DNA from: a virus
Taxonomy: Duplodnaviria; Caudoviricetes
Direction: 5' to 3' (one strand)
DNA: 63,051 nucleotides
Virus record (IMG/VR): IMGVR_UViG_3300036845_000466
Coordinates: 1-63,051 of that record
The position numbers and the translations under genes were made by a program. Positions 39,607-56,675 of the stretch are shown here, piece by piece (positions within the stretch are counted from its first letter, which is position 1; the number at the start of each line of letters is the position of its first letter). The notes beneath the pieces are model-generated. The model worked only from the letters and a program-made list of their open reading frames with translations, was not told where the DNA came from and did not search any database.

Positions 39607-39607
39607 G

Positions 39608-39862: not shown

Positions 39863-39880
39863 TGGTCGTTCCCTTCCGGT

Positions 39881-40492: not shown

Positions 40493-40504
40493 CGCTGGCC
40501 TCCC

Positions 40505-41223: not shown

Positions 41224-41226
41224 CTG

Positions 41227-41856
41227 CTATCCCTTCCGGGTGCTGCTGCCCAGGCCGGACTGCGCCTTGACAGCGGAGAGAAGATCCTGGTCCGCGCCCG
41301 CGTAGGCGCCGCCCAGGTCCGTGCTCGTAGTCTCGCCGGGCATGATGTCGAGCGCGCCCAGGTCGGCCGGCGCTCCGCCCGAGGCTTCTCCGGCCGGAAC
41401 CGAGTCCTGGTTGACCTCGGTCTGCTTGACCACCTTGGTAGACCCGGCCGGGTCCGGCCGGGTCCCGTCAGGCATCTGCGTCATCGGCCGGAAGATCGGA
41501 CCGGACAGCAGCGACGGCGGAGGCACGGGCGGGCCATCAGAGCTGACCTCGGACTTCAGGCGGATCACCGCGATCCGCCGTCCGTCCGTCTGCTGGTGCC
41601 GCAGGTACTTGGCCGCCTCAACATCGGTCAGGTACACCGTGTCGCCGGCCATCACCAGGTCGCACTGCCGGTCTTCCTTGGTGTTGTCGCGCCGGGGCAG
41701 CGACAAGTTGACCAGCGCCACGTAGGCGCGGCCGATGCGGACCGCCGGGGCGTGCACGTCGGCCTCGGCCGCCGCCCGCGCCAGGAACTCGTCGAGCTTC
41801 TTCCGCTCGGCGTCGGTCAGCGGCTTGGAAGCCAGTGCAGTGGCAGTTTCAGCCAC
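41227..41856 (-). CDS. hypothetical protein downstream of the capsid gene
   Basis: 209 aa ORF with GGAG RBS. Confidence 0.7.
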   Translation of the reverse strand: MAETATALASKPLTDAERKKLDEFLARAAAEADVHAPAVRIGRAYVALVNLSLPRRDNTKEDRQCDLVMAGDTVYLTDVEAAKYLRHQQTDGRRIAVIRLKSEVSSDGPPVPPPSLLSGPIFRPMTQMPDGTRPDPAGSTKVVKQTEVNQDSVPAGEASGGAPADLGALDIMPGETTSTDLGGAYAGADQDLLSAVKAQSGLGSSTRKG

Positions 41857-41859
41857 GGT

Positions 41860-42771
41860 TCACACTCCAGACAGCAGGCAGATCGCCAGGGGCTGGTCGA
41901 GCCCGATGGCGGATGCCCGCTGGGTGTCCGAGCGCCAGGTCTTGCGCGGCTCGTCGCGGTAGAGGGGGCCGGCGAGGAAAGGCAGCTCGTCGGCGTAGAA
42001 GCCAGCCCGGCCGCGCTGCATCACGATCGCGTTGCCCGGCGGGATCTGGCGGGAGACCATCACGTCGAGGTTCTGGATCTTCTGCGGCAGCGTGCCGGAG
42101 TAGAGCAGGTTCTCGCTGGCGATGTCGCCGATGTACGGCGCGGCGAACGTGCTGCTCTGGAGCAGCGTGTTCTTGGTGCCGTGGTTGATGATCAGCGTGT
42201 CGGCTTCGAAGCCGAGCCACTGGGTGACGCCCGAGGGGCTGACCACGTTGGCGTTCTCGACCAGGTACATAGCCTGGGCGAGGTCCGCGCGGGTGGTGGC
42301 CGACGCGCTCGACCAGGGGTTGGCCACGGCCAGGGTCTGGATCGAGGCGTTGGCGACGACAGCCGAGTAGAACGCGGTGTTCCAGCTGTAGACCATCGTG
42401 TTCTTGACCTGGAGAAGCTGCCGCGTCACCGGGTCGATCGCCTGCCGGCGGCGCATCTCGTCCGACACCATGATCGCCATCGCCCGCTCGTGGCTGAAGA
42501 CCACGCGGGGGTTGCCGATCGAGGTGGGCACGACGGGAACCTCGCCGAACTCCGACCTGATCTCGGGGAAGTCGTCCGCGTAAAGCGGCGTGCTCTCCGA
42601 GTAGCGGACAGCGCCGCTGGTCGCGGCACCGCCCATCCGCAGAACGGTGTCCATGATGAACTCGTTCTGCGTGATGTCCATGATGAGCGCGGGAATGACC
42701 AGGGGGTCCTTCAGCAGCTCGTTGACGGTAACTCTGGGGCCGTCAGAAAACCCCCGTGCGCCGACTGGCAT
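41860..42771 (-). CDS. major capsid protein (HK97 fold)
   Basis: TVNELLKDP, SEFGEVP, VSDEMRRR...DPVTRQL, ADTLIIN, DQPLA; position after protease and decoration genes. Confidence 0.88.
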   Translation of the reverse strand: MPVGARGFSDGPRVTVNELLKDPLVIPALIMDITQNEFIMDTVLRMGGAATSGAVRYSESTPLYADDFPEIRSEFGEVPVVPTSIGNPRVVFSHERAMAIMVSDEMRRRQAIDPVTRQLLQVKNTMVYSWNTAFYSAVVANASIQTLAVANPWSSASATTRADLAQAMYLVENANVVSPSGVTQWLGFEADTLIINHGTKNTLLQSSTFAAPYIGDIASENLLYSGTLPQKIQNLDVMVSRQIPPGNAIVMQRGRAGFYADELPFLAGPLYRDEPRKTWRSDTQRASAIGLDQPLAICLLSGV

Positions 42772-42792
42772 TGGTCAGTCCCTCTCGTTCTC

Positions 42793-43293
42793 TTAGAAGA
42801 CCCGGGCGCGGCCGAAGAAGAAGATCGCCGAGCCCTGTCCGCCGATGGCCTGGGTGAGCATGGCGGACGCAACGCCGCCGGGGTGCGTGCACACGCCGAC
42901 CACCTGGTCAGCAGCGGGGCCGGCGCCGGCAGCCGTGACGGTGCCGTTGTTGGCCGAGCCGATGATCAGCTTCTGGCCGGGGGCCACCTGGCCTGCGTAC
43001 CAGACCCAGATGTCGTATCCGCCGGCGTAGACCGCCGTGTAGTCGGTCAGCACCGAGATGTCGATCAGCGGCTCGCCGTAGCTGTTGGGCGAGCCGGTCT
43101 GGGCCGACAGCACGTTGGCGTCGTTGCCTGCGACGCCCAGGCAGGTCACCGAGGCCGAGAGCGCCGGCTTGACCGTGAGGTCCGTGGTGCCGGCGGTGGC
43201 CGTGTTGGGCTGCACGAACTGGCCGCCGTAGATCAGAGTGGCGACCTGAAGGTTGGCAGGCCCCATCTTGTAGTGCGGCAGGGAAGCCGACAT
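42793..43293 (-). CDS. capsid decoration/cement protein
   Basis: IYGGQFV...CLGVAGNDA...VVGVC; directly upstream of the capsid gene. Confidence 0.7.
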   Translation of the reverse strand: MSASLPHYKMGPANLQVATLIYGGQFVQPNTATAGTTDLTVKPALSASVTCLGVAGNDANVLSAQTGSPNSYGEPLIDISVLTDYTAVYAGGYDIWVWYAGQVAPGQKLIIGSANNGTVTAAGAGPAADQVVGVCTHPGGVASAMLTQAIGGQGSAIFFFGRARVF

Positions 43294-43305
43294 GGATCAG
43301 GTCTC

Positions 43306-43527
43306 CTAACTCGAATTACTGACGCCAGCGTGCTCGCCGAGCGTGTCGTGCGTTGGGCTGGAGGTTTGCGAGCCGTTGGTGTTCACCGAGCTGTTGACCG
43401 CCCGGAGTTTCGACGCCCCGATAGCCGTGACCTGGGCCGCCGTCAGGGCGAGCGTCGCGCCTTTGGCGACGTGCTCTCCCATGTAGGTGAAAGCCGTGAG
43501 TACGACATACAGGACGTTGGTGGCCAC
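43306..43527 (-). CDS. small virion-associated protein
   Basis: AFTY.GEHVAKG...AIGASKLRA...GEHAGVSN. Confidence 0.65.
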   Translation of the reverse strand: MATNVLYVVLTAFTYMGEHVAKGATLALTAAQVTAIGASKLRAVNSSVNTNGSQTSSPTHDTLGEHAGVSNSS

Positions 43528-43531
43528 CGGG

Positions 43532-44737
43532 TCAGATACCGACCTGGTTGCGGTACCGGCTCACGATGTCGTCGCGCGTCTGCTCGGCACGCTGGGAGGT
43601 GTCGGGCTCGTCCATCGTGCTGCCCAGCTCGCCGGACATGTCGAGCATCGACGCCGCCTTGCCGAACTCCGTCAGCACCCGGCGCATGACCAGCCCGGCG
43701 TCCACACCGTCGCCGTTGGCCAGCTCAACCGTGTGGCCGGTGCCCTCGAGCAGCGGCCGGGCCAGGTCGGTGATGTAGAGCGGGACGCCCTTGCCGAGCA
43801 GCTTCCGCTTCTCGTTCTCGAACGCCTCCTGGTCGGCCCGGCGCTGGAGCACGCCCATCTGCCGCTGGGTCTCGGCGAGCTGGTAGTTGGTCAGCTCGAT
43901 CTCGCTCATGCCGTAGCCGCCTTCGTTGGACAGGGACGCTCCGGCGCCTGCCAGGGCTGGCTCTTCGTCCAGCTCGTAGGCGGCGGTCAGCTCGGCGAAC
44001 TCTTCGTCCGTCATGCCGTTGATGGCGTCGACCAGCTCGTCGTCCTCGGTGGGCACGACCGGGTTGTAGCCGCCGGCGTCGCCGGCCGCAGCGGTGATGT
44101 CGGCCAGGCCGTCGATCGCCGCGCTCAGCCGGTCAGCGGGCAGGTCGAGCAGCAGCGCGAGCTTGGCCTGCTGCTCAGTGGTCAGTTCCGGCATGGTGAT
44201 GCCGCCTTCCTCTCCGGCGAACGTCGCCGCCGACAAGTCGATGATCATGTCAGGGGCGTTTGACATCTCCACGGCTTCCCACGCCCCGAGGTCGGGGATA
44301 CGGGGGTCCAGCGTGCCCAGGACGTGCTGGATCGCGGCCGGGAAGTACTTGCCGTCCGACCGTGCGTAGTCCTCCACGATGCGCGCGGAGACGCCGAGTT
44401 TCGGGTTGGTCAGCAGCAGCTTGTTGCCCTCGGGCGTCGGCTTCATCGTGACCCACAGGCCGTCGTTCTCCACGTTGACGCCGAGGATCTCGCCCCGGAA
44501 CCGCTCGGGGTCGTTCGTGTGCGTGTTGGCCGCGTCCGCCAGCTGGAACGGGACCTGGTTGTACGCCTGGCTGCTGAACGAGCTGGCCAGGGTCTCCAGG
44601 TACTTGCGGTCGAACGTCAGTACCCGGCCCTTGTACTCGATCTGCCCGACCGGCAGCACGCGTTTGCGCCAGATGCCGGGGTCGGCTGTCTGATGGGCGG
44701 GCGCCTTGCTGAACGGCAGGCGGATCTCGGCGGGCAC
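43532..44737 (-). CDS. Mu gpI-like prohead protease with C-terminal scaffold
   Basis: NTHTNDPE (His), GVSARI (Ser), HVLGTLDPRI; acidic coiled-coil C-terminal half. Confidence 0.82.
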   Translation of the reverse strand: MPAEIRLPFSKAPAHQTADPGIWRKRVLPVGQIEYKGRVLTFDRKYLETLASSFSSQAYNQVPFQLADAANTHTNDPERFRGEILGVNVENDGLWVTMKPTPEGNKLLLTNPKLGVSARIVEDYARSDGKYFPAAIQHVLGTLDPRIPDLGAWEAVEMSNAPDMIIDLSAATFAGEEGGITMPELTTEQQAKLALLLDLPADRLSAAIDGLADITAAAGDAGGYNPVVPTEDDELVDAINGMTDEEFAELTAAYELDEEPALAGAGASLSNEGGYGMSEIELTNYQLAETQRQMGVLQRRADQEAFENEKRKLLGKGVPLYITDLARPLLEGTGHTVELANGDGVDAGLVMRRVLTEFGKAASMLDMSGELGSTMDEPDTSQRAEQTRDDIVSRYRNQVGI

Positions 44738-44740
44738 CGG

Positions 44741-45481
44741 CTAGCTCGCCTTCGCGCCGAAGTTCTGGGCGCGCTTGGCCATCGCCAGGGCCACCTTCGG
44801 CGACATCCCCTTGGCGATCAGCTTTTTGTAGATCCCCTGGCCCTTGGGGGACAGGCCGCCGGGGCCGTCCTTGTCGGTGTCGCCGCTGGGGGTGCTGTCG
44901 TCGTCGCCGTCGTCGTCCGGGTCGTAGGCCAGGCGGATCGCGGGGACGCCGAACTGCTGCATGAGCGGGGTCTGCTGCGCCGGGGCCTGCAGCGGAGCGC
45001 CGGCGACCGACTTGTTGTACCGGCCGACCATCTCGATCAGGGCCCCGCGCTGGTGGCGGTGCGGGGTGTCCGAGTCCTTGTCGTCAACGGTAGGTACCCA
45101 GCCGCGCGCAGTCTGGCGGATCTTGCCGACCTCGTTGCCGCCGGACCGGTGGCGGACGATCGCGGTGCCGTCCGGCTGCCGCGACACGATCATGTCGCTG
45201 CCCTGCACCACAGGGAAACGGCGGGCCAGGCCGATCGCCCGCCCGCCGCTGTTGGCCAGGCCCATGTTCCCTGACGATGCGCCGCGCACCGTCAGCGGGA
45301 CTGTGCCGCTGCCGTTGGGCGCTCCCTGCGGGGCCCGCAGCGATTCGGAGCTGGAATCCGAGGTGCCCGACGCGCCGCCGTCGATCGCGAACCGGGCAGA
45401 GTCAGCCGCGTACCCGCAGCTCGGGCACTTCATCTTGCTGCTTCCGCCGTCTTCAGCGAAGCCGAGGTAATTGGGCGACAC
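44741..45481 (-). CDS. head-cluster hypothetical protein
   Basis: N-terminal CPSC; linker motifs ANSGGRAIGLA and PAIRLA. Confidence 0.72.
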   Translation of the reverse strand: MSPNYLGFAEDGGSSKMKCPSCGYAADSARFAIDGGASGTSDSSSESLRAPQGAPNGSGTVPLTVRGASSGNMGLANSGGRAIGLARRFPVVQGSDMIVSRQPDGTAIVRHRSGGNEVGKIRQTARGWVPTVDDKDSDTPHRHQRGALIEMVGRYNKSVAGAPLQAPAQQTPLMQQFGVPAIRLAYDPDDDGDDDSTPSGDTDKDGPGGLSPKGQGIYKKLIAKGMSPKVALAMAKRAQNFGAKAS

Positions 45482-45565
45482 GAGGCACAGACCTTCCTGG
45501 AAAGGAACTCCTGTGCGACATGGTACGGCGCTATTCTGCCTGCCTGCCAGCTAGCCAGCGCTATG

Positions 45566-45694
45566 TCAGGTGTTTTTCTCTGCCTTGTCGATCAAATCAG
45601 GCGCGGCTTTATCCGCGTCTTCCTGAGAAACGCCTGCCTGAATCATTGCCTGCTTTAGAACGTCTATTGCTGCCTGTTTTGCATCGGTCGGCAT
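45566..45694 (-). CDS. 42-aa hypothetical protein
   Basis: MPTDAKQAAIDVLKQAM...; visibly more AT-rich than flanks. Confidence 0.5.
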   Translation of the reverse strand: MPTDAKQAAIDVLKQAMIQAGVSQEDADKAAPDLIDKAEKNT

Positions 45695-45695
45695 G

Positions 45696-46805
45696 CTAAA
45701 GCCCCCGGACATAGTTGTGGATCGTGTTGGCCACGGGAACGAGAGCCGATGCGAGCAGTGCCTGGACCGGGCTGAGTCCCTGAGTGATGCCGCCGATAGC
45801 CACGGCAAGGCCGGCTGCATTGAACAGGTTGTACATGACCAGTCGCGTACGGTCACGGTGGTCGTCGAGGCTCACGGATTTCGCGTGGGTCTTGCGGAGG
45901 GCGGCGATCAGCTTCTGCTGTCCCTGGTGCACCTGGGCCATGTTGCGCTGCAGCTCGGCGTGCTGCTGCTCGGTGATCTGACCGACTTGCCTGGCCACCT
46001 CGGCGGCCACTCGCGCGTCGATGTACGACTTGAGCGCGGCCATGCTGGCGCCCGGCTGCGCCAGGGCAGCCAGGGCCGGGTCCGTCTTCTGCAGCGCCTC
46101 GCCCGTTGTCTTCGCCCCGGCGTCGGCCGCTGCCTGCTGCTGCTTCCCGGCCTCGGCCTCCGCCGCCTGGGCAGGCGACGCGTAATGTGCCAGGCCGGAG
46201 TCCCGCAGCGCTTCGTCCCGGGACCCGAGCCGGGTAGGCGACGACGGGGCCGACGCCCGGTCCGCCGCCGCACTTGCCTTGGCCATCTTCGCCTTGTGCG
46301 CGTCGAGCAGGGCCTGGTGCTCCGGGGTCAGCTTCCGGCTGCCGGCGACCGGAGGCGCCGGCGCGAGCTTGGCTGACGCCGCCCTGGCCGCGTCTTTTCT
46401 GGCGGCCTTGGCCGCCTCTGCCTGCTTCTGTGCCAGCCAGCCAGGCTGCACGTCGTTGAAGAAGTTGCCGACCACGGGTATCCAGCCGTGCCGGAAGGTG
46501 TACGCCGTACCGGGGATGTGGTGGTGGCCGATCGCGGCCAGCTCGATCTGCTCGCTGACCGTCATCGGCTGCGACAGCTGCGCGGACATCAGGCGGGGAC
46601 CGGGCGGCGGGTCCGTGTTCACCGCGCTGGCCAGGCGGGACAGCATCGACGCCGCGTCGCGGATCTCCGGCAGGTCGGCCGGGTCGGCCCGCGCCGCCAG
46701 CTCGTTGACCTGCTCGAGCGCGGGCACCGCCCGCGCCTTGGGGTCCTGCCAGGCCCAGCGCGCGATCGACCGCGCCTTGGCTCCGGCCGCCGTCATCTGG
46801 GTCAT
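45696..46805 (-). CDS. head-cluster modular protein, coiled coil plus C-terminal hydrophobic helices
   Basis: EQIELA followed by FRHGWIP; two hydrophobic segments at the C-terminus. Confidence 0.72.
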   Translation of the reverse strand: MTQMTAAGAKARSIARWAWQDPKARAVPALEQVNELAARADPADLPEIRDAASMLSRLASAVNTDPPPGPRLMSAQLSQPMTVSEQIELAAIGHHHIPGTAYTFRHGWIPVVGNFFNDVQPGWLAQKQAEAAKAARKDAARAASAKLAPAPPVAGSRKLTPEHQALLDAHKAKMAKASAAADRASAPSSPTRLGSRDEALRDSGLAHYASPAQAAEAEAGKQQQAAADAGAKTTGEALQKTDPALAALAQPGASMAALKSYIDARVAAEVARQVGQITEQQHAELQRNMAQVHQGQQKLIAALRKTHAKSVSLDDHRDRTRLVMYNLFNAAGLAVAIGGITQGLSPVQALLASALVPVANTIHNYVRGL

Positions 46806-49800
46806 GCCGCTGCCCTCTCTCCCGCGACCTCGGCCGCGCGCTGCGATGCCTTCAGCCTGGCATGCTGGAAAACCGATTGCGGGTCCCCGCCCCAGTCGTT
46901 CAGTATCGAGTTTCGGACAGACGGCAGGATCTTCGCAAGCTCTGCCTGGTCAGTGGTCATGTCAGCGGCCACGTGCCGCGCCATGACCATGATCTTCTCC
47001 GAGGTGCCCTGCGCGTTCACCTCGTCGCTGATCCGCTGGATCTCTGCGAGCGTGGCCGGGTCGTCCTCGCCCTTGCCGGTCCGCATCTGCGCGACCAGCG
47101 ATGTCCACTCAAACGCCTGCCTGGTCTCGGCCGCGTAGTGGTCCCACGCGTTCCCCGAGCGAATCCTGGCCGGGGTGTTCACCACGGCGGCGTACTCGCT
47201 CATGGTCAGGTGATCGCTGACAGGTATGTCCATCATCTTGAACTGCTTTTCCTGGAGTCTGTCGACGGCTGCCTTGACGCCCTTTACCACAGCCCGCTCG
47301 TTCATCGTCGCCCACAGGGAGTTGTCCCGCAGCAGAGTGCGCGCCTGGAGGATAACGTCGTCCAGCACATAGGGATCATCTGTGTCGTCGAGCCGGCCGA
47401 CCCCGGAGATCAGTGCGTCCAACGCATTGGCCCTGGCCTCGGACGGCCGGACCTCGAGCAGCTTGTCCCGCAGCGACGCCAGGGCAGCCTGGGCATCCTC
47501 TTTGGCCGCCGTGAATTCGGGGCTGTCCCTGTCTGCCTGGGCCATCATCAGCGTCTTGCGGTCGCCGACGCCCTGCTGACGGAAGAAGTCAGCGGCGTGC
47601 TGGATGGTGCCCAGCTCGGTGAAGCCTTCCTCGATCTCGGCGGCGGCGTAGCTTCCCTGGTACGCCTGCTCGTCGCCGTTACTCTCCCGGTGCTGGCCCT
47701 CTGGCACCACCGCGTGGATCATCTCGTGCAGCGGGACGGTGTAGTTGTCCGGCGCCTCTATCGGCCGGTCAGGGTGCACCTGGTCTTCGCGCAGCCCCGA
47801 GACCACGGTCCTGAGCATCTCCATGTGCCCGTTCCAGTCCATCACCGCCAGCAGCGTTCCCCGCAGGCTGGGCCTGGTTCCCGGCGCGAAAATTGTCGGT
47901 GCCTTGCCGTCCCAGTCCAGGTGCCCGCCAGGGCCGAACAGGGCGGGCAGACTCTGTGCCGACTTGCTGGTCATGTCCTTGACCAGCTGTTCTCCTGGGG
48001 TGAGCGGGTGGGCGTCCTCGAATACCTGCGGCTTGGTCCGGGCGGCGCGCTCGGCCCGGTCGGCCGCGTTGAACAGGCTGTGCAGCGACGCGGTGTCAGT
48101 TTCGGTGTCGCTGACGCTGGCGTACCCGATCGCCAGGCCGATCTTGAACCTGGCCGCGTCCAGGTCGCCGCGCGCTGCCGCGTCCTTTGCCTCGACTAGG
48201 GAGTACCGCACGTCAGGGTCAGACGTGGTGTCGATGCGCGCCTGGAGCGCGTCGCGCAGCTTGCCGTTCGGGCCCATGAGCCCGGCGCCGTCGCGGACCC
48301 ATTCGCCGTGGCGGCCTCTTAGCTCATGGCGCCAGGCGTCGTGCCATCCGAGGGCGATGACCTGCGCAGCAATCCCGCCCGCAGAGCTTCCCCGATCTCC
48401 GCCGCCGCCGCCAGGCGCTCGTCCTCCGGCAGGTCCCAGTAGCCCGGGGGCACCGCCACGTGCACCTTGGTTGGCGTGGTCGATGATTCGTCCGCCACCG
48501 CTGCCTCCCGTGTTGATGGTGCTGAAGGTGTTGAGATCGAAGATCCCCACCTGGTCGCGCGCCCGGCCCAGCTGCTCAGCTGTCGCACGGTCTGGTACGT
48601 TCTGCGACGGGTCCAGCCACAGTTTACCGTCTTCGACCCACCCGCCGAGGTACATGTCCCGGCCCTGGAACGACTCGCGCTCGGCCATCAGCATGTCGTC
48701 GATCGCCTTGTGCAACTTCTCCGGGTCGTCCAGGATCGCGGCCGGGTAGCGGTGCGTGTGGCCGTCGAGCGCGACCATGTAGCCGCCGGACGGCGCCGAT
48801 CCGGAGTAGGGCGAGACGCTGAACCCCTCGCGCTCTTTCTCCATCACCTTGACGGCTTCGCCGACCCCGCCGAACTTCGTCCACCGGCCGTGCGAATCGC
48901 GCGGCTCCATCTGCCAGTCCAGCTCGATGACCTGCTGGCTGATCAGGTGCGGGGTGGCATCGAGCATGGTGGTGCCCGGGTACGTCGGGATTTCCTCGGC
49001 CGCCGCCAGCTTGCCCCAGGCCGCCCAGGAATTGCGCATCTGGGTGGCCTGACCTTTGTTGACGTTTCCTGACAGGTCGGCGGCCTCGTTCTCGTCCTGC
49101 TGCTGCAGCCAGGTGATCGCCTGCAGCTGGTGCGGGGCGACCGTCACGCCGTCTCTCTGGCTGATCATCTTGGCGGCCAGGCGGTACTGGTCGGCTACGT
49201 AGGCGTAATGACGCTCTTTGCCGATCGGGGCGAGGTCCGCTTCCTTTTTCGGCAGCCGCTGGCCGATGGCCACCGTCATGGCGTGCCGGTCAATCACCAC
49301 GTCGCCCTGATCGTCGCCGGGCATGTCGCCGCCGTTGCGGATCAGCCTGGCGAACGCCCTGGTCTTCGGGCTTGAGTTGGCTACGTCGGCCGGAGCACCG
49401 TCGATCGCTTTCTGGGCGTTGGCCTGCATCGCCGTGGTGATCATGCCCTCGCCGGGGCCGAGGGCCCGGCCCATCTCGAGTGACCGGGCCGCGTTCATCA
49501 TGTTGGACGGCCAGCCGGTCTGCGGCGAGTATGCGGCCAGCACGCCGGCGCCCTTGTCCGCATTCCCTCCTGCGAGGGCTTTGGCGATCACGTGGGCGTC
49601 GGAGTACCAGCGCATCCCCTGCTGCTTGATCGGATCCGGCGCCCGGTCGTAGCTGGCGACGATGTGCTCCGGGCTGACCGGGTGCGCCTTGAAGAACGGG
49701 TGGTCGGCCGGGTCCGGCGGCCGGCCCCGGTCGCTGATCAGCCGCGCGTGGTCCGGCTGGCCGTAGTCCTTGCCTGCCTCGCCGAGCAGTTCCCCGGCCT

Positions 49801-50062
49801 TCGTCCACTCGCCGTGCTCGTTGCGCAGCTCGCCCGGGTTGTACCGCCAGCCGAACTCGACCGGCTCGTCAGGTTCTTCGATGACGGATATGTACCCGTT
49901 GTTCTTGCCTGACAGCGCCCGGTACGCCGCCTGCGCGCTGCCCTCGCGCCGGAGTACGTGATCCGCCATTCCCTGGATGCCACGGGTGGTGCCGCGCAGC
50001 CTGCTGCCTTCCATGTGAATCCGGCCGAGCACCCGGCCGCCGGAGTAGACCGCGAGAGACAT
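46802..50062 (-). CDS. polyvalent protein: HhH-GPD-like module, uncharacterised module and zincin metallopeptidase
   Basis: PKTRAF...VVIDRH...LQAITW; GYMVA...YLGGW...DQVGIFDL; HEMIH...EEGFTE; three R-x-x-H-G-x-W tags. Confidence 0.8.
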   Translation of the reverse strand: MSLAVYSGGRVLGRIHMEGSRLRGTTRGIQGMADHVLRREGSAQAAYRALSGKNNGYISVIEEPDEPVEFGWRYNPGELRNEHGEWTKAGELLGEAGKDYGQPDHARLISDRGRPPDPADHPFFKAHPVSPEHIVASYDRAPDPIKQQGMRWYSDAHVIAKALAGGNADKGAGVLAAYSPQTGWPSNMMNAARSLEMGRALGPGEGMITTAMQANAQKAIDGAPADVANSSPKTRAFARLIRNGGDMPGDDQGDVVIDRHAMTVAIGQRLPKKEADLAPIGKERHYAYVADQYRLAAKMISQRDGVTVAPHQLQAITWLQQQDENEAADLSGNVNKGQATQMRNSWAAWGKLAAAEEIPTYPGTTMLDATPHLISQQVIELDWQMEPRDSHGRWTKFGGVGEAVKVMEKEREGFSVSPYSGSAPSGGYMVALDGHTHRYPAAILDDPEKLHKAIDDMLMAERESFQGRDMYLGGWVEDGKLWLDPSQNVPDRATAEQLGRARDQVGIFDLNTFSTINTGGSGGGRIIDHANQGARGGAPGLLGPAGGRAPGGGGGDRGSSAGGIAAQVIALGWHDAWRHELRGRHGEWVRDGAGLMGPNGKLRDALQARIDTTSDPDVRYSLVEAKDAAARGDLDAARFKIGLAIGYASVSDTETDTASLHSLFNAADRAERAARTKPQVFEDAHPLTPGEQLVKDMTSKSAQSLPALFGPGGHLDWDGKAPTIFAPGTRPSLRGTLLAVMDWNGHMEMLRTVVSGLREDQVHPDRPIEAPDNYTVPLHEMIHAVVPEGQHRESNGDEQAYQGSYAAAEIEEGFTELGTIQHAADFFRQQGVGDRKTLMMAQADRDSPEFTAAKEDAQAALASLRDKLLEVRPSEARANALDALISGVGRLDDTDDPYVLDDVILQARTLLRDNSLWATMNERAVVKGVKAAVDRLQEKQFKMMDIPVSDHLTMSEYAAVVNTPARIRSGNAWDHYAAETRQAFEWTSLVAQMRTGKGEDDPATLAEIQRISDEVNAQGTSEKIMVMARHVAADMTTDQAELAKILPSVRNSILNDWGGDPQSVFQHARLKASQRAAEVAGERAAA

Positions 50063-50991
50063 CAGCTCTCCGTCCCGATGGCGTACTGGTGCATCTGATC
50101 AAAATTCATCATCATGTTCTGATACTCGTAGTCCATACCGTACTTCTCGAAATACGGCTTCAAGTTATTGAGCCCGGCCTGCCATTCTGTCCACTGCTCA
50201 GCCGGGAACTGCACCAGCGACTCGGGCTCGTTCCACAGATCCTCGCCGAACGGACCGGAGCCTGACTTGTAGTTGTCGACTTGCCAGGACAGGTTGCCGT
50301 GGTCGATAGGTACGGGCACGTCACCGTCTTTGGCTGTGTGGTGCACCATCCAGTTACCGAAATGCCGGTCGCCGTTGCCGGTCAGGTTGTCCAGGAGGCC
50401 GATCCGCTCGCCCTGGGGGCTGATGTACTCGTTGTACGGGTCATTGTCACCGAGAGGGTCCTCGTCCTCGTCGGTTCCGCCCATCCACTCGATAGCCGGC
50501 TTGGCACCCCTGGCGTACTCTTCCCACAGCTCAGGATCGGTGTCCGGCCCTGACCGCTGGGCTACCACGCCAGGCGCCCCGGCGCCGACGACATCAGAGA
50601 TACGCGATGCGACGATCTCGTTGGCCTCGGTCTGCATGCCCTGGCCGCGCTTACGGACCCACTTGTGGCCGTTGTTAAAGGTGACCACCTGCGTGTCCGC
50701 GCTGTTCCCGAAGTAGTTGGCGTTTCCGCCTGCCTGCACCAGGCCGCGCTTGGCGTGCGGCTGGCTCTCGGACTTGATGCCGCTCTCCTGGTCCGCCGCC
50801 AGCTTCGCCAGCAGCTCCTGCTCGCGGTGCTCCGGGTCGGGCCCGTGCTGGATGTGCGGCATTCCCGGGAACGTCTCCTGGAGAAAACCGTGGCCGAGCC
50901 CCTTGACCCACTTGCCGTCCCGGCCGCGCCGTTCAGTAAGCCAGGCGGTATCCCAGCCTGCGAACTCGGTGACCTGCTGAGAGATCAGCAC
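50062..50991 (-). CDS. HipA/PI3K-PI4K-like kinase
   Basis: VRK lysine, NEIVASRI, LDNLTGNGDRHFGNW catalytic loop, PIDHG. Confidence 0.82.
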   Translation of the reverse strand: MLISQQVTEFAGWDTAWLTERRGRDGKWVKGLGHGFLQETFPGMPHIQHGPDPEHREQELLAKLAADQESGIKSESQPHAKRGLVQAGGNANYFGNSADTQVVTFNNGHKWVRKRGQGMQTEANEIVASRISDVVGAGAPGVVAQRSGPDTDPELWEEYARGAKPAIEWMGGTDEDEDPLGDNDPYNEYISPQGERIGLLDNLTGNGDRHFGNWMVHHTAKDGDVPVPIDHGNLSWQVDNYKSGSGPFGEDLWNEPESLVQFPAEQWTEWQAGLNNLKPYFEKYGMDYEYQNMMMNFDQMHQYAIGTES

Positions 50992-50997
50992 CGCGCC

Positions 50998-53529
50998 TCA
51001 CAGCGCCTTGGCCTGCGCCATCGCCGCGCGGTACTGGTTCTGCAGCTGGACGATCTGCGTGTTCAGCGCCGCGATCTGGCTCTTCAGGCCGGCGGCGCTC
51101 GTGGACGATGCAGCCGTGGTCGACTTCGAAGTAGAAGCAGTAGAACTTTTGGCAGCGGTAGAGCTGGTAGAAGCGGTAGAGCTGGGCGTCGTAGCCGCGC
51201 TGCTCTTGGTGGTCGAGGCGCCGCTGGACGTGGTGCTGCCAGCCTGGCCGCTGCTGGTCTTGCCCGACGCACTGGCCAGGGCCTTTCGCAGGGCGTCCCG
51301 CTGAGCGATCAGTGCGTCGGCCTTGGCCCGGTACCCGGCCGCCTGCTTGATCAGCGCGGCTTTCTTCTGCGCGTTGCTGCTGGTCTTGGCCGGGGCCTTG
51401 GCCGTCGCTGCCTTGGTGGTGCGCGGGCCGCCCTTGCTCGAGGTGGCCGGGGTCGTCTTCGATCCGCCGCCTGAGCCGAACGTGCCGAGCGGGGTCCGGC
51501 TGTCCTGCGCCGCGCCCGCTGCCGTGCCGGTCAGCTCGATGATCCTGCGTGCCAGCTCCTGCCGTCCGCCGGTCTCCCAGCTGGCCGCGATATTACGGCT
51601 GGCTCCTGCCCGCGCCCGCGCAGTTGACCGGGCGTGGTTGGCACCTGCCTGCGCCCGCGCCAGCGCGCTGCCGCCGGCGGCGTACTTCTGTGCAGCTGCC
51701 GTTCTGGACCTGTATTCAGGCGTTGCGGCGGGCAGGGCTGCCAGGCCGTGCCCCTTCGGCAGGGCGGAGAGCTTGTCTGCGGCTGCTGCCAGGCGGCCAG
51801 AGTACGCCGGGTCGGCCCGCTCGGCTACGGCGGCGCTGCGCAGCGTGCCGGCGTGCACGCGGGCAAGCGACGGCTGCTTGCGGTCGATCATGGTGGCCGC
51901 GCGCCGCAGCGCCCGGCCGGTGTCAGACTCCGGCGCCCCGGGGCGGTCGGTGCCCGAGCCCACGCTAGTGGCCTCGCGGCTGGCCGGGCCTTCGGCCGAC
52001 CCGCGCAGGGTGGCGTAGTTGTGCTGCTGGTGGGCGTCGGCTTCGGTCGCCAGCCGGCGCAGCTCGGCGGCGTGCTCGGCGCTGCCGGGGGCGGCCTTCA
52101 TCGAGCTGCGGGTCTCTGCTGCCTGGCTGGCCCGGTGGCTCTTCACCAGGGCGCGGTCGATCGCGGACAGCCCGGCGCCACGTGACCACTTGCCGTCCCG
52201 GCCGCGCGGCTGCATCGGGTTGTACGCCAGCTCGATGATCTTGGCCGCCAGCTGCCTGTTCGCGGTCATCGCGTCTCCCTGGTTCGAGTGCGCGTGAGCG
52301 CGTGCCTGCTTGGCCCGCCAGTCAGCATCCGACGCAGCCGAGGCTGCGCGGACCTCGGGCTTGGTGTTCTTGCCGACTTCCCAGCGCTTAGTGGCGCCGC
52401 GCGCGATGGCGATGGCCTCGCTCAGCGTCTTGGCCCGGCCGGTCCGCAGCAGCGCGTGCGCGATGTTCTGGACGTAGGGCGGCAGCTCCATGTCTTTGAC
52501 GTGCCAGAGCCCCGGGCCGCCCGGCTTGCCGAACGGGTGCGGCACGCTCGCCAGGCGGGCGGTGTCAGCGGACAGGCCGATGGCCGTGGTCAGGTCGCCG
52601 TTGGCGGTCTGGATGGTGCCGCCGTACTGTCCCCGTGACTTCAGCTCCTGAAGAGACTGGTTGACCTTGCCCTTTTCTTTGAGCTTCGCGGTTACCGCCT
52701 TGGCGGCGTCCTGTGCGCTCATTCCCCGGCTCATAAGCTGCTGCACGGTGGCTACGGCGTTGGCCGGTGTCACGTTGTTCAGGATCTGCTCGTGCTCTGC
52801 ACCGCTCGTGATGTTGGCTATGTCCCGCATAATCGGGGCGTTGACATCCGGGTCGCTCATGACCCCGGCTGTCAGTGCGCTGCGTGCAACGGAGTCTGCA
52901 GCGGCTTTGATCCATCCGTGGATATACCCCTTGGGGCCGACCAGTTCGATAGCCGTGGTCAGGTCGCCGTTGGACGCCGCCACCTGCTTGGACTTGTGCG
53001 GGTCTGTCAGCGCGACCGGCTTGGCCACCGCCGGGTCCGGGCCGCCGGAGTTGGTCCGGGCCGGAGCGTTCAGCGCCTTTTCGAACGGCTGGCGGGCGGT
53101 CGGCCGCTCGTCCAGGCTGTCGTCGCCCGGCTCGGGGCTGCTGTCGCCCTGACGCGGCAGCTGGTTGTTGTACGCCTGGGTGTCCTGCACGTCCTTGACC
53201 AGCAGCAGGTGCCGGTGGATCGCGTCCATCGAGCGCTTGGCGGCGTCGTGATGGTCGTCGGTGAGCAGGCCGTGCCGGCGCAGCGACTGCGGCGTCATGT
53301 TGCCGATCGCCGCGTTCAGGTGGCGCACCGCGCCCTCGGGCTGGTTGCGGTCGAGCGCGGCGGCGGCGTCGCGGATATGGTGGTGCGCGCCCATCTCCGG
53401 GTGCCTGGACTTCATGTCGTCGGCCAGCTTGCGCATCGACTGGGCCGTGGCCTTGCGCAGCGCGGCTACCGGCTTGTACGGGGGGACCAGCGGCGGGCGG
53501 TAGCCAGGGCGGGCAAGGTTGATCGTCAT
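50998..53529 (-). CDS. modular head-cluster protein
   Basis: 843 aa with several I-[EG]-L linkers, a PRGRDGKW tag, an S/T-rich tract and a terminal coiled coil. Confidence 0.78.
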   Translation of the reverse strand: MTINLARPGYRPPLVPPYKPVAALRKATAQSMRKLADDMKSRHPEMGAHHHIRDAAAALDRNQPEGAVRHLNAAIGNMTPQSLRRHGLLTDDHHDAAKRSMDAIHRHLLLVKDVQDTQAYNNQLPRQGDSSPEPGDDSLDERPTARQPFEKALNAPARTNSGGPDPAVAKPVALTDPHKSKQVAASNGDLTTAIELVGPKGYIHGWIKAAADSVARSALTAGVMSDPDVNAPIMRDIANITSGAEHEQILNNVTPANAVATVQQLMSRGMSAQDAAKAVTAKLKEKGKVNQSLQELKSRGQYGGTIQTANGDLTTAIGLSADTARLASVPHPFGKPGGPGLWHVKDMELPPYVQNIAHALLRTGRAKTLSEAIAIARGATKRWEVGKNTKPEVRAASAASDADWRAKQARAHAHSNQGDAMTANRQLAAKIIELAYNPMQPRGRDGKWSRGAGLSAIDRALVKSHRASQAAETRSSMKAAPGSAEHAAELRRLATEADAHQQHNYATLRGSAEGPASREATSVGSGTDRPGAPESDTGRALRRAATMIDRKQPSLARVHAGTLRSAAVAERADPAYSGRLAAAADKLSALPKGHGLAALPAATPEYRSRTAAAQKYAAGGSALARAQAGANHARSTARARAGASRNIAASWETGGRQELARRIIELTGTAAGAAQDSRTPLGTFGSGGGSKTTPATSSKGGPRTTKAATAKAPAKTSSNAQKKAALIKQAAGYRAKADALIAQRDALRKALASASGKTSSGQAGSTTSSGASTTKSSAATTPSSTASTSSTAAKSSTASTSKSTTAASSTSAAGLKSQIAALNTQIVQLQNQYRAAMAQAKAL

Positions 53530-54215
53530 GCAGCTCTCCGGTATGTAGCGGCCTCCGGCAGGCCGAAGCTAGGAACCAGCCGGGCCCCGGGGAACGGAGA
53601 GCCCGGCTGGCACCGGCAGTGCGTGTGCACTGCGCCTGGGTAGCCGATCAGTGGCATGTGATCAGCGTAGAAGTTCCGGCCGTCTGCGGCCAGGCACTCC
53701 CTGCTTGTGTGCGCGTCGCGTTTTGCGTGCCAGCCCAGCAGCCGGCCGTACGTCATCGCCGCGCTGTCTGTCTGCGCGCCTGCCTGGCTGCGGTTCCAGA
53801 TGGCGACCAGGTGCTGCGCGTAGTACCGGCGCTCACGCTGTACCGACGCCGCCAGCTGACTGCTAATTGAGCGCCCCTGGCTGCGTGCGGCGGTCAGGTC
53901 GGCCCCGATCCGCCGGGCAGCGTTGATCGCGAACTGGGCGCGGCGGGTCAGGTTCAGCCGCTCGGTGGCCAGGGTGGCCGGGCCGTAGGCGCCGGTCTGA
54001 CCTGGCGGGAAGCTGATCACGATGTCGAGCGCGGCGAGCATGGCCTGCCTGGGCACGCCCACTGCCCGGACGGACTGGTAGACCCCGGCCACGGCCACGG
54101 CGGCCGACGTGGCGGTCAGCAGCGCCAGGCTGACCGCCGTGATCAGCGCAGCGTCACTCGGCGGCGGAGGCGGGGTCTGTGGCGGGGGCGGGGACTGCGG
54201 CTGGGTTGTCGGCAT
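53526..54215 (-). CDS. MuF/SPP1 gp7-like head morphogenesis protein
   Basis: W...D..TSREC...DG...PGAVHTHCRC. Confidence 0.82.
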   Translation of the reverse strand: MPTTQPQSPPPPQTPPPPPSDAALITAVSLALLTATSAAVAVAGVYQSVRAVGVPRQAMLAALDIVISFPPGQTGAYGPATLATERLNLTRRAQFAINAARRIGADLTAARSQGRSISSQLAASVQRERRYYAQHLVAIWNRSQAGAQTDSAAMTYGRLLGWHAKRDAHTSRECLAADGRNFYADHMPLIGYPGAVHTHCRCQPGSPFPGARLVPSFGLPEAATYRRAA

Positions 54216-55040: not shown

Positions 55041-56675
55041 TCATGCCATCCGCCCCGGCGGCGGGGACATCGCGGGCTTGGGCGGCGGGCCGGCCGCCGT
55101 GTTCGGCATCTTCAGCCCAGGCACCGCGCCGCCCCCGCCCCCGCCTGCGCGGGCGCCCGGCGGCGGCGGCGGCCGGAGCCCGCCGTTGCTGTTTCCGTGC
55201 TGTGCAATCAGCCCGCCGGCTGCCTGCGTGAGCCCCTGCAGACCGCCGAGCGCGCCGGCTGCCTCGGGCGGCATGCCAGGGGGCGGGTTGCCTGCTAGCT
55301 GCTCTGCCCGCTGGCTGGCCGTCGACACCAGGGCGTCATGCACCTGGTCCACGTCGAGCTGGAGGATGGTGGCCATCCGCTCGGTGATCAGGTCGAGCAC
55401 CGGCACCGGGATGTGCAGCGCGGGCGCGGCGGCCAGCTGGCCGAACAGGGTCAGCAGCGCCTGGATCTGCTCGTCCTGCAGCGGGCCGAACTTGAACGTC
55501 GGGAACGCGGCCTTCGAGCCGTAGTTGACGATGATCAGCGGCCTGATGATGCCGTAACTGAACGACTCGGCTATTTCCTTGGACACAGCCTGGCGGGACT
55601 TCAGGTAGAACGACGACTGGTCCTGGCTCAGCGCGTAGCTGCCCTTGCCGCCGGTGGCCGAGCCGGTCAGCGCCATGAATCCGGCCAGGACGGAGTGCGT
55701 CTGCCAGCCCTCGAGGAAGCCGAGCGCCTCCTGGAAGAACTTGCCGCCGTCGCCGCCCGACTCGATCGTCTCGAACGCCTTGCCGTTGTCGGCCGGGCGC
55801 ACCAGGCCGACCACGCCGGAGGACTTCAGCTCGGAGATGTCAGACGCGCGGCTGTTGGCCTCGGGCTGGTCGTTGCCGTAGACCACCGTGCGGGGCAGCG
55901 CCTGGTTCTCCAGGAAGTGGTACCAGAGGTAGAGCAGCTTCATCTTGGTCTGGTAGCACCAGTAGGAGATCTCCATCTCCGACGTGCCGGTCAGCGGTTC
56001 CTGCTCTTTGCCGTGCGTGTAGATGTAGCTGCGCACCTTGGGGATGTCGACGTACCCCGGGACTTTCTGGTGCTGCGTGACCTGCAAGTTCCCGCCGAAC
56101 AGCCAGACCTGCTGCCTGAAACCGTTCTGCTCGCCTGTCCGGTCGTTGTACCGCGCCTGGCAGGTGGCGGGCGGCCGGTAGGCGATCTTGTCGTAGATGA
56201 TCTTCTCGTCTTCGTCGCGGACCTTGAAGGTCTTCTCGAAGAACGACCGCCGGTAGATCTGCGCGGTAGTAATCTGCCCGATCAGCTCGTGGACCGGGGT
56301 ACGCATTCCGCCTTCGGTGTCGGGCGTCATGATCACCGAGTTGATGAATTCGGCCTCGCCCTTGTCGCCCTTGGCCGGCTCGATCGAGAAGTCGGCCTCG
56401 CGGATCGGGAGGGTAAGCACCAGGCGCACCGCGTTCGCCACGCCGTCACGGGCGAACATCGTCTTCATGTCACGGCTGGTCCACTCACCGTAATCGAACA
56501 CATCACCTTCGCCGTAATAGGCGAACAGGCGCTGTCCCCAGTCAAACTGGGTGCCGATCTCGGGACCCATCAGGGCCCTGCGGCCACCGTAGGGTTTGGA
56601 GCCAGGCGGGGCGATATCGGGGAACTCAACGACGTTGCCGCCGCCGGGCACCTTGAATCCCTTGCCAGTCGCCAC
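55041..56675 (-). CDS. portal protein (Mu gp29/DUF935-like)
   Basis: RDGVANAV...LTLPI, SFFEK, GSYALS, IIRPLIIVNYG; downstream of terminase. Confidence 0.88.
   Translation of the reverse strand: MATGKGFKVPGGGNVVEFPDIAPPGSKPYGGRRALMGPEIGTQFDWGQRLFAYYGEGDVFDYGEWTSRDMKTMFARDGVANAVRLVLTLPIREADFSIEPAKGDKGEAEFINSVIMTPDTEGGMRTPVHELIGQITTAQIYRRSFFEKTFKVRDEDEKIIYDKIAYRPPATCQARYNDRTGEQNGFRQQVWLFGGNLQVTQHQKVPGYVDIPKVRSYIYTHGKEQEPLTGTSEMEISYWCYQTKMKLLYLWYHFLENQALPRTVVYGNDQPEANSRASDISELKSSGVVGLVRPADNGKAFETIESGGDGGKFFQEALGFLEGWQTHSVLAGFMALTGSATGGKGSYALSQDQSSFYLKSRQAVSKEIAESFSYGIIRPLIIVNYGSKAAFPTFKFGPLQDEQIQALLTLFGQLAAAPALHIPVPVLDLITERMATILQLDVDQVHDALVSTASQRAEQLAGNPPPGMPPEAAGALGGLQGLTQAAGGLIAQHGNSNGGLRPPPPPGARAGGGGGGAVPGLKMPNTAAGPPPKPAMSPPPGRMA

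Follow-up and report, generated by a model that had tools for sequence, protein, structure and literature searches.

A linker motif common to a predicted prohead protease and the polyvalent proteins encoded beside it in an actinobacteriophage genome

The stretch of DNA considered here (the window) is one genome of 63,051 bp and ~68% G+C from an uncultured actinobacteriophage (IMG/VR record IMGVR_UViG_3300036845_000466). Between its genes for a MuF-like head protein and for a 401-amino-acid (aa) protein with the fold of a prohead protease lie five open reading frames (ORFs), and the best explanation for these is that they encode the cassette-built polyvalent cargo of a Mu-like head module. Their modules are set off by a short linker, and the core of this linker recurs at the junctions of the protease itself. 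The gene order, the fold and invariant residues of the protease, the spread of the motif, its placement at disordered boundaries and at the start of ORFs, and the polyvalent character of the homologues were computed directly; that the prohead protease cleaves the cargo at the linkers is a reading that we hold to lie somewhat on the probable side. An earlier note, made from the letters of the DNA and their translations, had proposed a system of this kind. Its 12 quoted motif strings were all found in the proteins that it named (12/12), and the observation is wider than first reported.

The protease-scaffold protein

The 401-aa protein (43532-44737; the head genes and all sites given within them are on the minus strand) consists of a protease domain (residues ~20-145; 44303-44680), an acidic helical linker (187-253) and a helical C-terminal part (279-399). 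In an AlphaFold2 (AF2) model built on 67 homologues, residues 20-145 have a predicted local distance difference test (pLDDT) value >90, and the best fold match of this N-domain is T4 gp21 (5jbl; Foldseek E 2.7e-4, prob 1.0, TM by target 0.57-0.59). The same structure (5jbl_A) was the only VIA match with Z>=8 (Z 10.8, root-mean-square deviation 3.4, 130 of 165 residues), and the next matches were the proteases of varicella-zoster virus (Z 7.7) and cytomegalovirus (HCMV; Z 6.3), with 14-17% sequence identity. H73, S117 (the serine of GVSAR) and H138 are invariant in 67/67 homologues; T4 gp21 is reported to be inactivated by H85A/S140A (PMC12991175). The N-domain has the fold of the gp21/assemblin clan, SH in MEROPS (S21, S77, S78, S80), and its setting is that of a head module, with the protease gene near that of the major capsid protein (MCP) and long helices predicted for residues 279-399. 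Judged by its model, the 401-aa protein joins a prohead protease of gp21/assemblin fold to a helical C-terminal region that resembles a scaffold, in agreement with the fusion that the earlier note had proposed.

The 401-aa protein has a protease fold yet fits no named sequence family. Neither Pfam nor PHROGs gave a family match at a threshold as loose as E<=10, its sequence profile found no solved protease among PDB sequences, and among the 120 listed of its 947 homologues in the protein collection none has a Pfam family. The cultured relatives, from 11 Streptomyces phages and one Microcystis phage (37-50% identity), are all annotated as 'hypothetical protein'.

The linker core occurs at the junctions of this protein, where the earlier note had placed it. 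Site A, EMSNAPDMIIDLSA (residues 157-170; 44228-44269), stands just past the protease domain within a pLDDT<50 segment (152-182), and its core, [IVL][ED]L[ASTG], is present in 62/67 homologues, with D167 in 67/67 and L168 in 66/67. Site B, LSNEGGYGMSEIELT (residues 269-283; 43889-43933), is located at the start of helix 279-315; a disordered stretch (pLDDT<50, 255-277) leads into the site and this 37-residue helix, and the core is kept in 48/67 homologues. Across the homologues these junction sites are conserved and their flanks vary. A further copy directly before the protease domain is found in 26/67 homologues and reads AIEL[GSA] in many of them; this phage has a degenerate form of it, and the motif is plain in chromosomal copies from metagenome-assembled genomes (MAGs). 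Because T4 gp21 activates by removal of its N-terminus, this N-terminal copy fits a gp21-like self-activation. The fourth place is the VELA of GHTVELANG in the C-terminal domain (residues 337-340; 43718-43729), present in 54/67 homologues (family form HVVELANG) and modelled with pLDDT >90 as a beta-hairpin with strands 336-338/344-346. HVVELANG closely resembles site B (AIELAN), and could either be cut as well, close to the end that binds the capsid, or serve as a strand mimicked by the linkers.

Chromosomal copies of the protease domain alone (~21-178) occur on four Actinomycetota MAG contigs of 0.19-2.3 Mb (L159, L162, L163 and L165), at 39-66% identity, and keep the N-terminal AIEL[SAG] and site A. 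In L159 the domain is fused to a tail like that of the 246-aa cargo protein described below, and the copies in L163 and L165 look frameshifted. These are probably prophage remnants.

The cargo proteins and their linkers

The cargo genes occupy ~9.3 kb between MuF and the protease, and their products are named here by length (p843, p309, p1086, p369 and p246). Their linkers are of two kinds: class I, in which SN stands ahead of the core (SN...IEL), and composite linkers, in which the core is accompanied by a second element of higher specificity, M2 (W/F...E-x-R-[DGN]-x-x-G-[REK]-W-[TV]-x-G), which lies 5-20 residues past many linkers and which the earlier note had missed. The M2-bearing stretches of the window are 48881-48901, 48299-48319, 49805-49825, 50908-50928 and 52186-52206.

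The first cargo protein, p843 (843 aa; 50998-53529), can be divided into modules at 1-190, 197-307, 320-421, 436-660 and 668-843, the last being Ser/Thr/Ala-rich with a coiled coil at its C-terminus. The class I linkers ASNGDLTTAIELV (residues 185-197; 52939-52977) and TANGDLTTAIGLS (308-320; 52570-52608), whose DNA forms a repeat of 91% identity over 32 nt, are followed by the composite linker TANRQLAAKIIELA with the M2 RGRDGKW (422-435 and 442-448; 52186-52266) and by RRIIELT (661-667; 51529-51549). In tblastn searches of relatives, the ends of high-scoring segment pairs (HSPs) adjoin the p843 linkers, at q196-199, q316-317 and q435-442. The next protein, p309 (309 aa; 50062-50991), is kinase-like (Pfam PI3_PI4_kinase E 1.3e-5, at 25.7 bits just under the 27.1-bit cut-off) and begins directly with a composite linker, its start reading MLISQQVTEFAGW; this linker consists of QQVTEFA (residues 5-11) and the M2 RGRDGKW (22-28) and spans 50908-50979.

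The largest cargo protein, p1086 (1086 aa; 46802-50062; Pfam DUF7178 E 1.1e-36), gave an AF2 model with a mean pLDDT of 81, in which confident domains at ~100-365 (DUF7178), ~395-530 and ~598-1086 (HEMIH-bearing) are accompanied by segments of pLDDT<50 at 1-79, 88-97, 370-386, 531-581 and 590-596. It has three composite linkers: the degenerate PVEFG (67-71) with RNEHGEW (80-86; 49805-49864), QQVIELD (376-382) with RDSHGRW (388-394; 48881-48937), and AQVIALG (566-572) with RGRHGEW (582-588; 48299-48367). The cores at 67-71, 376-382 and 566-572 all lie within the pLDDT<50 inter-domain segments, so that here, as in the protease-scaffold protein, the linkers stand between folded domains as the earlier note had anticipated. 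The linker PVEFG with RNEHGEW was absent from the list in that note. A regular-expression match at residue 641 was rejected as a linker, being inside a helix.

The C-terminal domain of p1086 carries a candidate zincin active-site motif, HEMIH (residues 779-783; 47714-47728). The zincin suggested earlier remains a candidate: the HExxH is kept in the consensus of the homologues, and residues 685-1063 align with M1 zinc aminopeptidases (VIA Z 8.7-9.2 over 185-194 residues, a middling match), but the module has no Pfam match. A match that is likewise middling joins residues 130-324 (DUF7178) to the 8-oxoguanine glycosylase Tm1821 (3n0u; VIA Z 10.2, 173 of 209 residues), and isolated DUF7178 genes are labelled 'glycosylase' in some cultured phages. 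A Foldseek search with the whole p1086 model returned no match at E<=0.001, and ESM Atlas searches with the p1086 C-domain and the p843 core module gave no usable lead, the sole hint being a cluster at score 0.89 with Peptidase_M78 in 18% of its members. Among cultured phages, matches to p1086 are limited to the isolated DUF7178 domain.

The remaining two proteins are shorter. In p369 (369 aa; 45696-46805) the linker EQIELA (residues 85-90; 46536-46553) is followed by FRHGWIPV; a hydrophobic stretch towards the C-terminus (~322-340, Kyte-Doolittle 1.64) might insert in a membrane. In p246 (246 aa; 44741-45481), whose N-terminus (CPSCGY...) is a zinc-ribbon-like piece, the linkers are LANSGGRAIGLA (75-86; 45224-45259) and PAIRLA (180-185; 44927-44944). 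A third motif, [FY]xHGW[IL], is seen after class I linkers, as GYIHGWIK in p843 (203-208) and as FRHGWIPV in p369 (110-116). In the 51 related loci described below, HGW[IL] occurs 21 times in cargo ORFs and once elsewhere; it is also found in the cargo protein gp9 of Streptomyces phage Microdon and in the relatives L003-L083.

Spread and specificity of the linker motif

To compare motif use within this genome, the 7 head ORFs (3,483 aa) were set against the 61 other ORFs (14,461 aa). The tripeptide IEL occurs 6 times in the head ORFs and twice elsewhere, [AIVQE]I[EDGAR]L[ASTGVD] 11 and 5 times, and [SA]N.{4,10}I[EDGAR]L 6 times and once; for each pattern 0/1000 within-protein shuffles reached the observed head-ORF count, the patterns having been defined post hoc, after the data were seen. 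In an unbiased test of all tripeptides, IEL ranked 3rd of 105 (Fisher p 7e-4, uncorrected), below the low-complexity words AKA and KAA.

Relatives give a larger sample. A protease homologue is encoded by 189 viral contigs, from which 81 loci were kept; removal of 14 without a called protease gene and of 16 that were >=90% identical in the protease left 51 loci. The ORFs upstream of the protease in these loci (83,594 aa, portal and TerL excluded) were compared with all other ORFs (97,938 aa). IEL is found 84 times upstream and 14 times in the other ORFs, [IVL][ED]L[ASTG] 176 and 89 times, and the bipartite pattern [SA]N.{4,10}[IVL][EDG]L[ASTGV] 53 times upstream (shuffle mean 2.5, maximum 7) and 49 times in the 51 proteases, with 2 occurrences elsewhere. 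The motif is enriched over other genes both in this genome and among its relatives, the outcome that the checks named in the earlier note called for. Its density is higher upstream in 21/24 loci with >=1000 aa on both sides, and among unbiased tripeptides IEL ranks 8th of 1810 (p 4e-16) and GRW, which belongs to M2, ranks 4th. The signal is kept while the flanks have diverged to ~45-70% identity. Residue use is similar in protease and cargo at all four positions of the core; at position 3, for example, the proteases have L 199, M 31 and F 5 times in 242 sites, and the cargo has L 69, M 8 and F 3 times in 80.

We compared as well the DUF7178 domain in and outside this setting, by reading the frame around each DUF7178 match, since the domain also occurs in other phage groups of the same G+C (0.65-0.72). 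Among DUF7178 proteins in loci with this protease or this type of MuF, 36/39 carry M2, with 113 M2 and 103 core sites in all, against 1/31 in the other loci (28,459 aa; 1 M2 and 9 core sites), some of which are short, so that the absence of the protease there is not always established. A crude reduced-alphabet repeat finder detected no other linkers in the DUF7178 giants of group C, and it is too insensitive to find any in p1086 or p843 either.

The possibility that the linkers are a chance or compositional artefact of a high-G+C genome draws on the ranking of IEL in this genome, only 3rd of 105 tripeptides and below Ala/Lys words. The shuffles that never reach the observed counts and the near-absence of linkers from DUF7178 proteins of other lineages at the same G+C speak against it, and the replication in 51 loci refutes it; we regard chance as a negligible prospect.

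Several other searches bear on the motif. The C-terminus of the MCP, which reads RASAIGLDQP (stretch 285-295, with SAIGLD at residue 288), fits the loose form of the motif pattern too, and was rejected as a site; distant MCPs read SAVFIDQP or SAAGLDQP at this place, and the stretch looks structural, probably part of the fold. A Pfam scan of five linker pieces of 40-50 aa returned nothing relevant. A complex prediction of protease residues 1-150 with p843 residues 172-212 (41 aa) scored 0.12 (mark 0.32) and, having been run without controls, gives no verdict.

Polyvalent homologues and module shuffling

We find that p1086 has 60 homologues of similar length, with homologues of up to 1,881 aa, in which DUF7178 is joined to PI3/PI4-kinase, ADPrib_exo_Tox, NUDIX, Zeta toxin/AAA_33, ParB, Arr or Abhydrolase_8. 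Homologues with kinase, ADP-ribosyltransferase (ART), NUDIX, Zeta and ParB domains place the cargo proteins among the polyvalent proteins of Iyer et al. 2017 (PMC5512222), as the earlier note had supposed. Several unrelated domains are present per chain, p1086 having three confident ones, and linkage to MuF is seen both in the adjacent MuF gene and in P0191, an M2-bearing protein of another lineage that has a MuF domain within it.

The modules are heavily reshuffled among relatives. In 29 non-identical loci with both MuF and this protease, the p843 core (320-421) is present in 29, the p843 N-module in 27, p246 in 27, DUF7178 in 22, the second module of p1086 in 12, the zincin-like module in 11, p369 in 5 and the kinase in 4. 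Some modules joined in one genome are encoded separately in another, with the break at the linker. In an all-against-all BLAST comparison of 60 proteins, the share of internal HSP starts within +-30 aa of M2 is 43% and that of ends 40%, compared with 14% for random positions, figures in which the HSPs are redundant and M2 is itself a conserved island. Besides p309, relatives have 14 ORFs whose start is 2-17 residues ahead of the core (start codons by the longest-ORF rule), and 27 of 140 M2 sites are no more than 45 aa from the beginning of an ORF. The earlier description of the linker as a separator of modules therefore covers part of the pattern: linkers do mark domain borders, but they also head stand-alone ORFs. 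Because the linker is found at the N-terminus of such ORFs, it must do more than part fused modules, and it looks like the N-terminal targeting-plus-cleavage peptide of T4.

These N-terminal linkers bring up a rival explanation, namely that the motif is a docking signal, a strand-forming peptide that attaches the cargo to the scaffold/protease core or to the capsid interior and is left uncut or cut elsewhere. A signal kept at the start of p309 and of the 14 ORFs in relatives, where there is no module to separate, is what docking would predict, and the conserved HVVELANG copy inside a folded beta-hairpin of the scaffold fits strand mimicry or augmentation; in T4 too the capsid targeting sequence (CTS) is described as primarily a targeting peptide (PMC9958956). 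The two best-conserved copies in the protease are, however, disordered and lie exactly where the protease-scaffold fusion must be cut, and for multi-enzyme proteins of 800-1,900 aa one would expect that the parts have to be separated. Docking is also compatible with cleavage, as substrates dock in the protease groove and both coexist in T4. We judge docking in place of cleavage to be unlikely.

The census bears on another rival, in which the linkers are cut by a different peptidase, either the HExxH domain of p1086 or a host enzyme, and the prohead protease is uninvolved. Autoprocessing of polyvalent proteins driven by a zincin (MPTase) was proposed by Iyer et al. (PMC5512222), and the conserved HExxH of p1086 and the alignment of residues 685-1063 with M1 aminopeptidases (Z 8.7-9.2) supply a candidate. 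The zincin-like module is nevertheless found in just 11/29 loci, and linkers are kept at a similar density where it is missing: in 28 of the 29 loci (L091 was omitted, its content being equal to that of L090), the 17 without zincin have 41 M2, 21 SN-IEL and 74 core motifs in 28,111 aa, compared with 67, 21 and 81 in 31,973 aa in the 11 with zincin. A different peptidase would also leave the same motif at the protease's own junctions unexplained, and we think this explanation very improbable.

The second element

M2 is found 5 times in head ORFs of this genome and in no other of its ORFs, and in the 51 loci 121 times upstream of the protease and twice in other ORFs. From 56 composite linkers (5 in the window and 51 of the 58 in relatives, 7 of odd spacing being omitted) we built a profile, which among 1.84 billion cluster representatives matched 1,005 at E<=1e-3, of which 209 reach E<=1e-10. 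The matched proteins are mostly 500-3,800 aa long and show 2-9 matched stretches. In 123 new M2 proteins taken from the best 150 profile matches (P0181-P0303), most M2 sites are preceded by an IEL-type core in 29, and 61 have >=4 M2 sites of which at most 25% are so preceded; the residues ahead of M2 in other lineages read, for example, K[FY][DS]P[SD][EQ]P-RD..GRW or [FY][DN]Px[EQ]P-RD..GRW-T.GG. Pfam matches were obtained in 21/22 M2 proteins scanned, and include MuF, ART-PolyVal, ADPrib_exo_Tox, Acb1, GNAT, Zeta toxin, LigT, histidine phosphatase, LPD1 and DUF7178. None of 24 Pfam envelopes in 19 proteins contains M2 (0/24), compared with 11.1 expected by random placement, with one or two non-overlapping families counted per protein. 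M2 is therefore a tag that marks module borders in polyvalent proteins generally, and what is lineage-specific is the IEL/SN part.

Neither the IEL/SN linker nor M2 has a Pfam model, and neither element was found described in the literature searched, which was covered in part and without supplements, or in the text of PMC5512222. For P0196 nothing useful was found among cultured phages, and P0200 has no relative among the viral contigs searched.

The wide spread of M2 suggests a further rival, that the whole linker is a boundary tag unrelated to the protease, either an N-terminal cap or folding element or a patch of homology that eases shuffling, comparable to the demarcation motifs of polymorphic toxins, with the likeness to the protease sites arising by convergence on a transition from disorder to structure. 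Borders marked by M2 without the IEL core in other lineages (61/123 proteins), the Pfam envelopes that avoid M2 and the reshuffling of modules are all in keeping with such a tag, as are the short DNA repeats at the linkers (24-40 nt, 73-91% identity). The DNA identity of the linkers is, however, no higher than the conservation of the peptide implies, and a recombination signal at the DNA level was rejected as the main cause, the repeats being so short and so divergent. The bipartite SN...[IVL][ED]L is shared with the protease and hardly found elsewhere (2 in 97,938 aa), and the IEL core lies in AF2-disordered segments, unlike a fold cap. A tag without any relation to the protease is in our view decidedly unlikely.

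How the linkers may be used

The reading that we prefer is that the signal would be the substrate site of this serine protease. Each cassette opens with a short unstructured signal whose core is [IVL]-[ED]-L-[small]. In class I this core comes after [SA]N-x4-10; in the other class it comes after [LI][ST]xQ and ahead of W/F-x..-E-x-R-[DG]-x-x-G-[RE]-W. The core recurs with its SN prefix at the protease-scaffold junctions, after the protease domain, before the scaffold helices and, in many relatives, before the protease domain. The cargo may be carried into the assembling procapsid with the protease-scaffold core, where the activated protease would cut itself free and then cut the cargo at every linker, much as T4 gp21 acts on CTS-bearing internal proteins. 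Small pieces would leave, while the folded modules (the kinase-like one, the glycosylase-like DUF7178, the HExxH domain and others) would remain in the head and be ejected with the DNA at infection.

For the scissile bond we lean slightly towards [IVL]-[ED]|L, after the acidic residue, over I-x-L|small, after Leu in the manner of assemblin. The former is favoured because gp21-type enzymes, to our knowledge, all cut after Glu and because the acidic position is invariant at site A. The assemblin-like alternative (P3-P2-P1|P1') would also suit a pattern made up of a hydrophobic residue, a variable one, Leu and a small one, and the G, A and R variants at 4/12 sites would be compatible with it.

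A number of points weigh against cleavage by the prohead protease. Binding, cleavage, packaging and ejection are all inferred. The signal in this genome taken alone is borderline and no more than suggestive, and the counts over 51 loci overstate their independence, as the loci are kin. Of the 12 listed sites in this phage, four have G, A or R in place of the family E/D (AIGLS, AIGLA, VIALG and AIRLA) and one reads T-E-F. D/E use at protease and cargo sites does not co-vary significantly from locus to locus (rho 0.50, p 0.096, n=12). The folded VELAN hairpin of the scaffold indicates that the core is neither always a linker nor obviously accessible, and the linkers kept at the N-terminus of stand-alone ORFs are left unexplained by mere separation of modules. 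Finally, M2 is present in none of the 51 proteases, and its occurrence at borders without the IEL core in other lineages indicates that a border role is possible without a protease-like site.

We also consider, as a doubtful but possible extension, that the two-part linker is a portable loading-and-release grammar, in which the core would target and cut, M2 would mark the start of a cassette, and M2 would be a signal common to polyvalent proteins across lineages.

Comparison with known systems

The closest parallel is found in T4, where gp21 is reported to strip N-terminal peptides from IPI-III and Alt and to activate itself by losing its own 9 N-terminal residues (PMC9958956). Both systems have a gp21-fold prohead protease, with self-cutting in T4 and N-terminal core copies in the homologues here, and in both non-essential enzymes or effectors of the head core would carry a short N-terminal peptide removed by the protease. 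Unlike in T4, the signal here repeats inside polyproteins of up to 1,086 aa, so that there are several modules per chain, and M2 follows the site; the setting is an actinophage of siphovirus type with a Mu-like head module (Mu portal, MuF). The letters of the motif are different as well, the T4 cleavage consensus being L/I-x-E, and cutting in the present system is a prediction from sequence.

In the phiKZ-like phages, with motif small-x-E, the genomes are ~4x larger and the motif differs from the one described here. One motif is shared there by head or ejection proteins and by the C-terminal propeptide of the protease (phiKZ gp175, SPN3US gp245): SPN3US gp245 is reported to cut ejection proteins and itself at a single motif, and propeptides can hold several sites (PMC10052503). 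In those phages long N-terminal propeptides are discarded, whereas the pieces between sites here are folded enzyme-like domains. The herpesvirus assemblin-scaffold precursor, with its R and M sites, is also a protease-scaffold fusion of the same fold class (varicella-zoster Z 7.7, HCMV Z 6.3) that cleaves itself at sites just past the protease domain and in the scaffold. The assemblin site has the consensus (V/L/I)-x-A|S, and we know of no cargo polyproteins that share it.

The polyvalent proteins of Iyer, Burroughs, Anand, de Souza and Aravind (2017) resemble the present ones in having many effector domains per chain, in standing beside MuF or fused to it in a late or head context, and in their families, of which ART, NUDIX, Zeta toxin, ParB, kinase, GNAT, Acb1 and LPD1 occur in homologues. 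In contrast to processing by a zincin, which PMC5512222 proposes in a text that, in the parts searched, makes no mention of a linker or short motif, we find a linker grammar shared with the prohead protease and a MuF that is separate and small. Polymorphic toxins likewise have a short conserved peptide at the junction of variable cassettes; they are secreted bacterial proteins with one variable tip, whereas serial cassettes in the virion and a presumed enzyme in trans characterise the system here. Their demarcation motifs include PxxxxDPxGL of Rhs, which is also a site of proteolytic release, and VENN of CdiA. Phage Mu has a head module of portal gpH, gpF and protease-scaffold gpI/gpZ, and its order of TerL, portal, MuF, protease-scaffold and MCP is seen again here; unlike in Mu, cargo genes are inserted, and the protease does not match the Mu-like protease family (no Pfam match at E<=10).

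The genome and its head genes

ORFs were called by third-position G+C, which gave 68 ORFs. Long ORFs on the plus strand opposite the head genes (40885-43689, 39563-41122 and others, of up to 934 aa) fail this test and were rejected as antisense artefacts of high G+C. The head genes follow the order of Mu on the minus strand: TerL (57637-59286), a Mu-type portal (55041-56675; Pfam Portal_Mu E 9.3e-31), the MuF-like protein, the five cargo ORFs, the 401-aa protein, two small ORFs and the MCP. A weak match to Mu Gp36 is found further along the genome. The MuF-like protein (229 aa; 53526-54215) matches Phage_Mu_F (PF04233; E 3.9e-5) over profile positions 12-110 of 112 with 24.8 bits, missing the cut-off of 29.6 bits, and is 39% identical (E 1e-37) to gp8 of Microdon; it is likely a distant member of Phage_Mu_F, positioned like MuF behind a Mu-type portal. 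Its gene shares 4 nt with the beginning of the first cargo ORF, and MuF and cargo are unfused. The MCP (303 aa; 41860-42771; PHROG 1650 E 2.6e-72) is encoded without an N-terminal delta domain.

The sole sizeable non-coding stretch in the cargo block is a 214-nt gap between p369 and p246 (45482-45695), in which a short frame with its end at 45566 might code for ~40 aa. The annotation of Microdon (MH825706.1) looks shifted in comparison with ours: its gene 8, 'capsid maturation protease', is the MuF homologue, its gene 13, labelled 'hypothetical protein', is homologous to the protease-scaffold protein of gp21 fold, and its gene 14, 'scaffolding protein', is the homologue of a 166-aa ORF at 42793-43293 (32% identity, E 3e-8).

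Elsewhere the genome encodes PolA, a primase-polymerase, a D5_N helicase, an SNF2 helicase, an Lsr2-like protein (10164-10577; E 2.3e-6, below the cut-off), a GH25 lysin and a transglycosylase domain of the Rpf type (61960-62730; E 8.7e-9). The Lsr2-like gene and the Rpf-type transglycosylase are typical of actinobacterial hosts, and all loci that encode relatives of the protease in species genomes (10/10) are in Actinomycetota MAGs (Kineosporiaceae, Streptosporangiaceae and a Mycobacterium sp.). No tRNA was detected in the 63,051 bp, and a scan of the 40 larger ORFs showed no integrase.

Implications

Reports on T4 and the phiKZ group (PMC9958956, PMC10052503) already describe prohead proteases that process packaged proteins at a shared motif. 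What would be new is its application to polyvalent polyproteins in a Mu-like head module, for which we see a modest balance of probability. New in any case are a signal identical with that at the protease's own junctions, a protease family without a curated model and a general boundary tag in M2.

How polyvalent proteins become working units has been open since their description, and this locus offers a concrete alternative to the self-processing by a zincin that is put forward in Iyer et al. 2017. The linker is shared with the junctions of the protease, is kept over at least 51 related loci, and is near-absent where this cargo domain occurs with other head lineages. Pfam domains are bracketed by M2 in ~1,000 protein clusters, which include the anti-CBASS protein Acb1 (CBASS, cyclic oligonucleotide-based antiphage signalling system) and ADP-ribosyltransferases. 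In practice it is a marker by which giant proteins can be split into modules and modules without assigned function flagged as candidate anti-defence effectors. The activity of the prohead protease is itself reported to be sensed by CBASS (PMC12991175), and through this sensing the linker system bears on host immunity. If the portable grammar were true, any domain placed behind the linker would be enclosed, cut free and injected, the question of polyvalent-protein processing would have its answer, and if it works, it would provide a natural tag for loading chosen proteins into phage capsids.

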